This document shows positions 1 to 4,942 of a stretch of DNA of 64,000 nucleotides, piece by piece. Made by a program: the position numbers and the translations under genes. Position 1 is the stretch's first letter. The number at the start of each line of letters is the position of its first letter. The notes under the pieces are model-generated. The model saw only the letters and a program-made list of their open reading frames with translations, had not been told where the DNA came from and ran no database searches. The DNA lies in the NCBI GenBank assembly GCA_963700285.1, contig CAVOXA010000010.1, forward strand, positions 64,001 through 128,000, given 5' to 3'. This DNA comes from an uncultured Chloroflexia bacterium (GTDB lineage: Bacteria; Chloroflexota; Anaerolineae; JAAYZQ01).

Positions 1-168
1 ATTCGGCATCAGCCTGTCTTGAACGAGTACTTCAAAGAACTCAACCGTACCAAGCATGCCGGTGTCGCTCGCGTGGCCACCGCCCGCAGGGCTATGGGCA
101 TCCTGTGGGCCATGCAGCGCGATCAGCATTCGCGGACCTTGGTGCTCAAGCGAGGTGCCCAGATGTAG
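1..168 (+). CDS. IS110-family transposase/recombinase, C-terminal fragment (5' end outside window)
   Basis: Frame 1 reads IRHQPVLNEYFKELNRTKHAGVARVATARRAMGILWAMQRD...GAQM*, matching the IS110 C-terminal pattern (Y..L...K....A.vA.ARk...I.WAM). Stop TAG at 166-168. Not in the supplied ORF track. Confidence 0.75.
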   Translation: MRHQPVLNEYFKELNRTKHAGVARVATARRAMGILWAMQRDQHSRTLVLKRGAQM

Positions 169-179
169 ACAACTACGAC

Positions 180-430
180 AGCTTTCGCGTCGCGGGCCAA
201 CGTCCGTTCGCGTAAACCCTACAACTGAGCCGTTGCCATGGGCAGTGCGCCAGGCGGAACGGGGGTCGGCCGACCTTCTCCTTGAGGTTATCCAGACCCT
301 CGACCAAAAGCCTGGACCGCCCCCGTTCCGTGGCGCTGAAACCCTGGATAAAGTTTGGTGAGCCCCTGCCTTCGGTACGCTCGAATACCAGGATAGGGAT
401 AACAGTGCCCGTTGATTGGCCGCTGGCAAA
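180..430 (+). ncRNA. Candidate bridge RNA / seekRNA of the IS110 element
   Basis: Stem 255-265/320-330 (11 bp perfect, extended by 247-252/331-336) encloses an internal loop and an inner hairpin. Loop segment CCAAAAGC (304-311) is the reverse complement of GCTTTTGG (574-581) at the putative element end. RNA boundaries approximate. Confidence 0.55.
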
Positions 431-676
431 CTGTGCCTGCCTCTGTTCAGTTGTTTGGTATCACTCGTCCGGCTCATATCTGGCCTGCTATTTCGAAAAG
501 CCTGTCTTTTGCGAGCTATGCTCGTGCACCTTTTCGGCATTCATTGGGAAAGGATTTGACTTCATGATAGTATGCTTTTGGAACCACTGAGACAGCGATT
601 CCGATGAAATCACGGCATCAATTCTATTCCTCGGAGCTTTCCGCCGAGCCAAAGGGCTCACAACTTCCGAGGTCCG

Positions 677-1573
677 TTAGCCTGCAATCAGCAGGCCGAT
701 GGCTACCAGCACCGGTGTGGCAACGGTCAGGAGGACGTTGTAGCCCAGGTAAGGTATCAGTTTCCCCACATCGTCGGCATAGCGGTATACCCCCAGCGCC
801 GTGGGAACTGCGACCAAGATGGTGAGGAGACCCAGGAGACTGGCAACAGGCAGCAGCGCCGACAGAACACCAGCGACGATGGTGAGGTAGGTCAGGGAGA
901 GAAACAAGCCGTAGATGAGACTACTCTTCTTTCTGCCCAGGACGATAGGATAATGCCGCCGGCCCACGCACTCGTCTGCCTCCACGTCGGGGAACTGATT
1001 CAGTAGCAGCAGGTCGCTGACCAGGAAAGTGGGCACCAGTGACGCAACCAAAGCCGTCCAGGTGTATTCGCCAGTGAGGACAAAATCAGTACCCATGACC
1101 ATCAACAACCCAAAGCCAAGACCTGGCGCCATAAGACACAGAAGCGGTGAATGGGTAACCCAGGGCGTATAGGCAACGATGACGAGCACGCCAAGGATCC
1201 CCAGAGGCAGGATAGACCAGCCCCAGACGGCCAGAAAAAAGAGGCCGATCAGGACCGTGACCGTCAGCGCGACTAGGCCAATGGTCAATGCCGAACGCGC
1301 CATCTCGGGCCTGGCGGCTAGGGTGCCACTTCCACCACTGAAGGGAGTGCGCTGAGTCTGGAGGTCCAAACCACTGCGGAAATCAAAGTATTCATTCAGG
1401 GCGTTGACACTAACGTGGGCGGCAGTTGCGCCAACGAAGGCCAGGACAACGTGAACGGGGTCAAGCTGGCCCCGGGTCCAGACGGCTGTACCCACGCCCA
1501 GCAGTACGCAGGCCAGCGGCAGCACAAGAAAAGGCAGGCGCATGGGCCCCAAGAGGGCTTTGGGTGAGTTCAT
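677..1573 (-). CDS. menA: UbiA/MenA-family prenyltransferase (DHNA polyprenyltransferase-like)
   Basis: NEYFD..G.D, TPFSGGS and NQFPDVEAD motifs; multiple TM segments. Confidence 0.8.
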   Translation of the reverse strand: MNSPKALLGPMRLPFLVLPLACVLLGVGTAVWTRGQLDPVHVVLAFVGATAAHVSVNALNEYFDFRSGLDLQTQRTPFSGGSGTLAARPEMARSALTIGLVALTVTVLIGLFFLAVWGWSILPLGILGVLVIVAYTPWVTHSPLLCLMAPGLGFGLLMVMGTDFVLTGEYTWTALVASLVPTFLVSDLLLLNQFPDVEADECVGRRHYPIVLGRKKSSLIYGLFLSLTYLTIVAGVLSALLPVASLLGLLTILVAVPTALGVYRYADDVGKLIPYLGYNVLLTVATPVLVAIGLLIAG

Positions 1574-3961: not shown

Positions 3962-4942
3962 ATGGACCAACCCCAACTGGCTTCCGAACCCTTGAGGGAC
4001 GACCCATCTCTCAAGGTGGTTGTCTACACCGATGGTGGCTGTGACCCCAACCCCGGCCCGGGTGGTTGGGGGGCGATCATCCACTGGCACGATCGCGAAT
4101 GGGTGCTCAGCGGCAACGATCCTGCTACCACAAACAATCGCATGGAGATCCAGGCGGCAGCCGCGGCCCTGGCGCTGCTCCAGGGGATGCTGGGTCACTG
4201 CCAGGTGCAGATCTACACCGATTCGCAGTACTTGCGCCAGGGCATCACGGAATGGATCGATGGCTGGGTAGGCCGCGGCTGGCGTACCAACAACAGCGAA
4301 CCAGTCAAGAACCAAGACCTGTGGCGCCTGCTGCACCACCTGACCCAAGCGCACGATGTGTCCTGGCACTGGCTCAAGGGGCATGCCGGCCATCCCCTCA
4401 ACGAACGGGCTGACCGGCTGGCCAGCGAGGCACTGAAGGCGCTCCAGCGAGGTCCTGGCGCACAAAGCGTCCATCAGCCTGGCACCGAGAACCGAGCCAG
4501 TGTCGAGATCTATGTTAAAGCATCCTGTCGCGGCGCACAGGGCCCTGGTGGCTGGGGTGCTGTACTGCGCACCGGCGAGCACGCCAGGACCCTCACCGGC
4601 CAGGAACCCTCCACGACGGCCAACGCAATGCTAATCCGCGGCGCGACTGGGGCACTATTGGCGTTGAACCGCCCCTGCCGGGTGGCCCTCTATTCCGACG
4701 CCAAGTACCTGATTCAAGGGGCATCGCAGTGGGTCAAAGGCTGGCAGGCGCACGGTTGGCGGACCCGTGATGGCAAGCCGGTGGCCAACCAGGGCGAGTG
4801 GCAGGCGTTATTGGAGGCGGCCCGTCCCCACAACGTCACCTGGCTGCTGGCCCAGGGGGACGCCATCCCTAACGACCTGGAGCGGGCCGGCGAACTGGCT
4901 AGCCAGGCAGCGACATTGCAGAAAGCAGACGGGGAGATGTAA
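3962..4942 (+). CDS. rnhA: Ribonuclease HI with a second, degenerate RNase H domain
   Basis: Domain 1: YTDGGC.PNPGPGGW, TTNNRMEI, YTDSQY, KGHAGH..NERAD. Domain 2 repeats GPGGWGA and YSDAKY..QG..W..GW...GW. Confidence 0.9.
   Translation: MDQPQLASEPLRDDPSLKVVVYTDGGCDPNPGPGGWGAIIHWHDREWVLSGNDPATTNNRMEIQAAAAALALLQGMLGHCQVQIYTDSQYLRQGITEWIDGWVGRGWRTNNSEPVKNQDLWRLLHHLTQAHDVSWHWLKGHAGHPLNERADRLASEALKALQRGPGAQSVHQPGTENRASVEIYVKASCRGAQGPGGWGAVLRTGEHARTLTGQEPSTTANAMLIRGATGALLALNRPCRVALYSDAKYLIQGASQWVKGWQAHGWRTRDGKPVANQGEWQALLEAARPHNVTWLLAQGDAIPNDLERAGELASQAATLQKADGEM

Follow-up and report, generated by a model that had tools for sequence, protein, structure and literature searches.

An IS110-group element with a predicted two-loop bridge RNA in its right end and an anti-Shine-Dalgarno sequence in the target guide

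The window, the whole stretch of 64,000 nucleotides that was analysed (G000:C10:64001-128000), opens inside an insertion element. Window positions 1-576 are the right end of a 1,908-bp IS110 element (length includes both CT cores), and the transposase ORF start and the element left end lie outside the window on the same contig. The features are:

1..168, + strand: final 55 codons plus stop codon of the IS110 transposase (443 aa; ORF start outside the window, G000:C10 62837)
1..477, - strand: start of a 600-codon antisense frame with its ATG at 477; the frame spans the whole element
169..574, + strand: right non-coding end, 406 bp; aligned throughout with a second copy and with relatives, which part from it after 576
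255..330, + strand: target-binding loop module; outer stem 255-271 with 314-330, 12 of 16 pairs changed on both sides (50 sequences)
274..282, + strand: left target guide; variable 274-277, near-invariant CTC 278-280, core CT 281-282; covaries with left flank -7 to -4
284..301, + strand: inner hairpin of the target-binding loop (RNAalifold prediction)
304..310, + strand: right target guide, complementary to core and right flank
311..312, + strand: predicted target-loop handshake guide; C311 complements donor G574 (role predicted from PMC11208158)
332..409, + strand: donor-binding loop module; stems 332-338/403-409, 342-345/395-398, 360-363/379-382 and 367-370/374-377
348..359, + strand: region of the left donor guide, in which 353-357 follows donor 570-574 (window copy: 4 of 5)
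385..393, + strand: right donor guide 385-391 and predicted handshake guide GA 392-393
556..561, + strand: -35 box; in the computed circular form the left-end -10 box is 17 bp away
567..576, + strand: left donor 567-574 and CT core 575-576; right element boundary
577..581: host DNA forming the right half of the target site; all 5 positions match the right guide, and the empty ortholog has it with one change
677..1573, - strand: host UbiA prenyltransferase gene (PF01040, E 6.1e-24), upstream of the insertion on the host strand and syntenic in the empty ortholog

The transposase (443 aa, or 448 from a TTG start) carries the DEDD RuvC-like and Tnp20 domains that had been expected of the upstream ORF (PF01548, E 2.5e-26; PF02371, E 1.7e-8) and scored 171 bits against NCBIfam NF033542, where the cut-off is 140. 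Residues D35, E90, D133 and D136 and the catalytic serine S357 were invariant in 13 of 13 aligned proteins. Of 160 plasmid matches, the 15 that were listed were 24-32% identical and mostly annotated as IS110 transposases; the best phmmer match in the PDB was ISCro4 (E 0.001), and the IS621 chain was not among the matches of that search.

The element was compared with 81 related loci (70 from metagenomes and 11 from genomes), the 11 from named genomes being Chloroflexota, mostly Anaerolineae. A genome of the same genus has the site without the element (the empty ortholog), joined at the CT core: the host reads CTC, CT and then the right flank, with the core in single copy, and the core is therefore CT at C10 62669-62670 on the left and at window 575-576 on the right. 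Similarity to the second genomic copy and to the relatives is lost directly after 575-576, and CT precedes 67 of 67 left ends found, so that a core at this position and a boundary near 576, both proposed by the original prediction, were borne out. The left junction, read from the upstream contig, shows a flank ending GATCTCTC followed by the CT core; the predicted flank ending CGACCTT-CT was absent, and the flank matches the left guide at 4 of 7 positions. The left non-coding end (166 bp) is shorter than the right end.

The second copy (L098, at G000:C16 5778-7683) is frameshifted and shares 91% aligned identity with the window copy over about 1.9 kb. Whereas its ends are near-identical to those of the window copy, the middle and the guides diverge, and these guides fit poorly to its right flank and to its donor. 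It is possibly a recombinant that moved in trans. The right junction of L098 was also present in run X15.

RNAalifold placed two modules, each a stem, internal loop and hairpin, within the right end. The alignment held 50 of 51 distinct RNA regions (L026 was excluded for a long insertion); 97.2% of cells in the proposed structure were paired and 23 of 39 pairs had changed on both sides, as compared to 12.3 two-sided pairs for shuffled alignments (0 of 500 reached 23) and at most 8 for slid controls. The fold and covariation check on homologous ends thus came out in favour of the stems. Within the target-binding loop, 255-265 and 320-330 form the perfect 11-bp inverted repeat noted at the outset, and the inner hairpin predicted at about 282-302 folded at about 282-303 (z -3.2 for 250-412; alignment consensus 283-302), but its 4 pairs never vary and covariation is uninformative there. 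The donor-binding loop (332-409), which the earlier reading had overlooked together with the handshake guides and the anti-Shine-Dalgarno sequence of the left guide, had 11 of 19 pairs changed on both sides. An Rfam scan over the element returned no family at a useful score (best E 0.67). Judged from these alignments, the right end almost certainly encodes a two-loop bridge RNA. Four RNA runs contain contigs of the element or its relatives, some over the RNA region, although contigs cannot show transcription. Two further observations concern this region: window 186-212, just past the stop codon, holds a conserved GCGTC motif and a hairpin, perhaps the RNA's 5' stem-loop; and the tip of the donor-loop hairpin tolerates insertions of 10-50 nt (L019, L025, L026, L052, L054 and a 60%-identity group).

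Positions 273-277 and 303-307 are hypervariable within an otherwise fixed scaffold. The right target guide was first suspected from CCAAAAGC (304-311), which is, as claimed, the exact reverse complement of 574-581. This 8-mer by itself is within chance (the window has 4 matches where 2.17 are expected, and at least 4 occur in 14 of 100 shuffles), and the match gains its weight from covariation across the relatives. Right guides matched their right flanks at 154 positions where 92.4 ± 6.8 were expected (0 of 20000 permutations; 43 distinct rows of 46, L039 dropped because its loop was out of register), with the signal at +1 to +4 (38, 33, 36 and 20 of 43 rows; expected 26.4, 14.3, 18.1 and 11.2), supporting the proposal that this guide pairs with core and right flank. 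Left guides matched left flanks at 135 positions against 90.1 ± 6.3 expected (0 of 20000; 39 distinct rows of 40, L014, L015 and L049 having been dropped under the first register), the signal coming from four positions. When permuted within kin clusters at three thresholds, the right guide gave 0 of 20000 at each and the left guide 43, 2 and 0. The signal was confined to one register (z 10.2 right and 8.0 left; shifted registers at most 1.0). One cross control, right guide against left flank, was above chance (79 of 20000; 92-169 within clusters), and kinship or base composition therefore inflates the covariation numbers somewhat. Covariation of loop and flanks, sought across homologs, was hence found, more weakly on the left side.

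The 5' strand of the loop does hold a left guide that covaries with the flank, as predicted, but its register had been set 3 nt off: because the empty ortholog fixes the core at 281-282, the guide is 274-282 rather than 271-279, with the core not at 278-279. The fit of single elements to their flanks varied, on the left from 7 of 7 (8 of 43 rows) to 4 or fewer (8 of 43), and on the right from 4 of 4 (19 of 46) to 2 or fewer of 4 (14 of 46). The left guide has CTC in 57 of 60 loops; at locus L015 guide and flank alike read TCC, and the flanks of L014 and L049 depart from their own guides. By eye, near-identical elements in public runs had left flanks fitting the guide at 7 of 7 (X2) and 5 of 7 (X8) positions, and right flanks fitting at 3 of 4 (X1, X2 and X6). 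The predicted handshake guide of this loop complements the donor with both bases in 32 of 53 elements and with the first base in 52 of 53.

In the donor-binding loop, the right donor guide (385-391) complements the core together with the left end's first 5 nt; guide and left end co-change, matching in all 46 elements (40 have one type, 6 the other); the predicted handshake GA (392-393) complements the last two target bases. The left donor guide matched the donor at 63 positions against 53.9 expected (14 distinct types, 7 of 20000 permutations); we read it as having a 2-nt bulge and a G opposite the first core base. By our count the window copy would form one handshake pair before exchange and three after. 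A pseudoknot of 304-308 with 353-357, hinted at by the two genomic copies, was ruled out: these stretches show independent variation, and 353-357 follows the donor.

The host gene behind the insertion is hfq (PF17209; L001 4436-4657, - strand), which is present without the element in the same-genus genome, where its native Shine-Dalgarno sequence lies 8 nt before the ATG. The element opposes the direction of the host gene, and hfq keeps its own AGGAG and start codon. Among 60 distinct left flanks of at least 40 nt, 54 end in CTC, so that with the core the opposite strand reads AGGAG, and CUCCU of the left guide is an anti-Shine-Dalgarno sequence. An ATG follows the AGGAG by 4-10 nt in 38 of the 60 (22 lack it). 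The corresponding figures are 15.5% for the 17,225 AGGAG sites in G000, 10.4% for randomly chosen positions and 6 of 44 for the right flanks; since some flanks are kin, a binomial p of 7e-17 makes this excess look too strong. A fairer background is given by genomic sites with the central guide motif, 56 of 208 of which (27%) already have such an ATG, and part of the excess therefore comes from the motif. In run X2, the left flank that matched the window left guide at 7 of 7 positions has, by eye, an ATG 8 nt after AGGAG. On the sequence comparisons given here, the guide very probably directs insertion to Shine-Dalgarno sequences. A minus-strand open frame ends near the element in 21 of 27 right flanks, a raw, uncontrolled count that was not used as evidence.

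Some flanks stood apart. L005, L057, L061 and L072 share related left flanks with an ATG only 3 nt after AGGAG, and L005 and L072 also share right flank and guides; this site is possibly a repeated target inside another mobile element. The right flanks of L003 and L030 and the left flank of L043 resemble donor and not target; half-match recombination would give donor-like flanks (10.64898/2026.08.31.748434).

When the element ends are joined by computation, the -35 box of the right end and the -10 box of the left end are 17 bp apart in 42 of 42 elements with both ends. No circle junction was seen in 8 of 24 listed sequencing runs, searched as contigs, which drop rare forms. The left end also has a 5' UTR 10-mer that is invariant in 50 of 50 aligned left ends, out of 61. 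The UTR motif can form a duplex of about 11-16 bp with transposase codons 29-34 (L001 4768-4783 with 4921-4936), enclosing the Shine-Dalgarno sequence and start codon and lying just before the first catalytic Asp codon. Computed for 55 rows, with 4 skipped, its energy ranged from -23.7 to -36.2 kcal/mol. Most synonymous changes within it keep G-U compatibility (8 and 2 rows), and the end pair is broken in 3 rows; of 131 codons, 4 are at least 95% identical, codons 30 and 33 being two of them. This duplex would likely repress transposase translation. A pairing of the left-end 10-mer with the conserved post-stop motif was tried and dropped as weak (the median ranked within the top 12% of windows, and 2 of 40 reached the top 5%; the test window was misplaced for L034 and L036).

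Opposite the transposase runs a minus-strand ORF of 621 codons, 600 of them from the in-frame ATG at window 477; the window copy has an in-frame stop ahead of a further ATG upstream, at window 540. Outside the window, the frame terminates at a TAA that is part of the left-end -10 box and lies 4 nt ahead of the host AGGAG. In 40 distinct complete elements (the C16 copy excluded) the frame was fully open from the ATG in 19 and broken in 21, and the open frames divide by -10 box as 18 of 24 with TATTAT, 1 of 3 with TATCAT and 0 of 13 with TATAAT, which lacks the stop. CAT occupies the aligned position in 40 of 40 elements and is in frame in 25 of 40, and a purine-rich stretch often lies 6-8 nt before the antisense start. 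The coding region was free of antisense stops in 23 of 24 TATTAT-type elements, whereas 25 of 1396 long host ORFs were stop-free along a length of 443 codons, and stops of this frame were depleted in both non-coding ends (26 versus 65 and 62; 26 versus 72 and 110). Open elements differ down to 70% amino-acid identity, but a tree of 38 rows (L042 and L034 excluded for frameshifts) shows only about 3 switches between open and broken. The antisense product had no match to Pfam at threshold (best E 0.035). Ribosomes might be relayed through this frame to the host AGGAG; we give this a little less than an even chance.

Several other readings of these data deserve weight. In the register of the original prediction, the left guide at 271-279 with its core at 278-279 would specify the target CGACCTT-CT-TTTGG, and a CCT at the element's left end would make a new AGGAG. 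At first sight every left end does resemble CT-CCTGG, and in both registers the variable guide bases line up with the same flank bases; however, the empty ortholog, with CTC-CT before the right flank, refutes it, only the new register gives the 17-bp promoter spacing in all 42 elements (the old one gives 20 bp by our count), and 7 of 67 loci differ at -3 to -1 while CT is fixed, the guide of L015 changing with its flank. We consider the older register hardly credible, and a Shine-Dalgarno sequence supplied by the element is ruled out by the native CTC-CT of the empty site. It is also very improbable that the element belongs to the IS1111 group with a seekRNA-type multi-loop guide RNA. A long non-coding end 3' of the ORF is the usual IS1111 layout (PMC11208160, PMC11187229), and the RNA was correctly placed there by the prediction; the IS1111 label nevertheless fails, because the 7-17-bp sub-terminal repeat of that group is absent (the commonest repeat is 3 bp, in 18 of 35 end pairs, with one 7-bp match in 35 at 9-10 nt inside the ends), because 443 aa falls outside the 330-350 aa of IS1111 transposases and inside the 395-455 aa of an IS110 subgroup (PMC11187229), and because both RNA loops, the donor loop included, are simple internal loops.

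A real bridge RNA might also insert the element at any matching site, with intergenic copies persisting and the antisense frame arising as a by-product of GC-rich codon bias. The ATG already present at 27% of genomic motif matches agrees with such survivorship, as do the 37% of flanks without ATG and the few independent changes of the antisense frame, and for the position before genes survivor selection is inseparable from targeting in these data. Against it, the guide keeps CTC-CT in 57 of 60 loops amid hypervariable neighbours, the stop-free antisense frame of 443 codons that is rare in long host ORFs is nearly universal in TATTAT-type elements, its stops are depleted in the non-coding ends as well, and other A-ending codons are still in use; as an account of the whole we judge it unlikely. 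That the frame instead encodes a functional 600-aa protein and is not a ribosome track is highly improbable: the CAT found throughout, in frame in 25 elements and often with purines at 6-8 nt, would fit a gene, whereas Pfam gave no match at threshold, the frame overlaps both transposase and structured RNA, and it is broken in 13 of 13 TATAAT-type elements.

The reading favoured here is guided insertion at Shine-Dalgarno sequences, for which sequence-level support covers the guides, the ends, the target consensus and the empty site. It is highly probable that this is an IS110-group element whose right-end bridge RNA guides insertion at a CT core upstream of a host Shine-Dalgarno sequence, opposing the host gene. 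By analogy with IS621, a transposase tetramer would bind both RNA loops, the left target guide would pair with the AGGAG-bearing strand and the right guide with the top strand, and exchange would take place at CT; one handshake pair before exchange and three after would favour insertion. Excision would make a circle whose junction forms the -35/17/-10 promoter, and a single transcript would presumably cover transposase and bridge RNA. More tentatively, ribosomes would traverse the antisense frame, stop beside the host AGGAG and keep the host gene expressed. Taken together, anti-Shine-Dalgarno guide, 600-codon antisense ribosome relay and a UTR-coding duplex silencing the transposase could describe a self-hiding RNA-guided transposon, in which the relay stop codon doubles as the -10 box and lineages without the stop have also lost the frame; we lean slightly away from this combined reading.

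The placement among IS110 bridge-RNA recombinases, which the prediction had made, is supported by domains, ends, two-loop RNA and covariation. The element shares with IS621 the CT core and the plan of both loops, namely stem, 9-nt left guide, inner hairpin, right guide, 2-nt handshake and stem (PMC11208160, PMC11208158); the target loop follows the IS621 order of linker, 9-nt left guide, U, hairpin, G-N linker, right guide, 2-nt handshake, 4-nt linker and stem (PMC11208158). A short ATA/TAT repeat around the donor, a predicted junction promoter and the count of one handshake pair before and three after exchange (PMC13626964) are further likenesses. In contrast to IS621, which has its RNA in the left end, transposases of 315-330 aa in its branch and REP as target, the element here has its RNA in the right end, a 443-aa transposase, Shine-Dalgarno sequences as target, and a left end with its own promoter-like boxes and UTR-coding duplex. 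The IS110-group trait of a bridge RNA usually in the left end thus fails here. Exceptions are already known: IS110-group elements whose non-coding region lies 3' (Siddiquee 2024, PMC11187229) likewise have no long sub-terminal repeat, a long transposase and a downstream non-coding region, although the section of that paper treating them gives no guide mapping or target. With the IS1111 elements ISEc11 and ISPa11 it shares a guide RNA region downstream of the transposase and a junction promoter (PMC11187229, PMC11208160), and it differs from them in having no 7-17-bp sub-terminal repeats, a longer protein and a simple donor loop. From sequence, the layout is a bridge-recombinase variant with an IS621-like RNA in the opposite end, and the type of system is already known.

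The closest published parallel for the target is IS900 of Mycobacterium avium subsp. paratuberculosis, an IS110-family element with target CATG-N6-TCTCCTT (PMC8141618); the target here, CAT-N-CTCCT (start codon and Shine-Dalgarno sequence on the opposite strand), matches that motif. IS900 hed is an antisense ORF spanning the element without its own RBS or start codon (PMC8141618), whereas the present frame has an in-element ATG (25 of 40) and the host gene keeps its AGGAG. A bridge-RNA explanation of the IS900 target was not found in the papers searched, few of them subscription papers, and among the readable supplementary files of Durrant 2024 (PMC11208160) IS900 occurs in the tree table only. 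No description of an anti-Shine-Dalgarno bridge guide was found in the literature searched, which took in a minority of subscription papers and some of the supplements. The present comparison ties an old observation, that IS900 targets translation starts, to a readable guide sequence, and adds a naturally reprogrammed bridge-recombinase clade (the 81 loci). If the antisense frame prevents polarity, it would explain how a 1.9-kb element can sit ahead of a gene like hfq without silencing it; if the self-hiding reading is true, it would give hed-type antisense ORFs a testable function and provide a natural tool for non-polar insertion.

Three minor observations were made at the left end. The left junction makes a hybrid promoter-like site (L001 4651-4678, + strand; 10 of 12, with a TG extension) that uses bases of the hfq start; it could drive the element in the linear state, and one such site is expected by chance. 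At L001 4687-4702 and in relatives, a short inverted repeat carries the left-end TTGACA box in its loop, and its arms co-change in many relatives (by eye). An RNA-library contig of run X15 skips 110 bases across the transposase start (L001 4803-4912), which may be an artefact.
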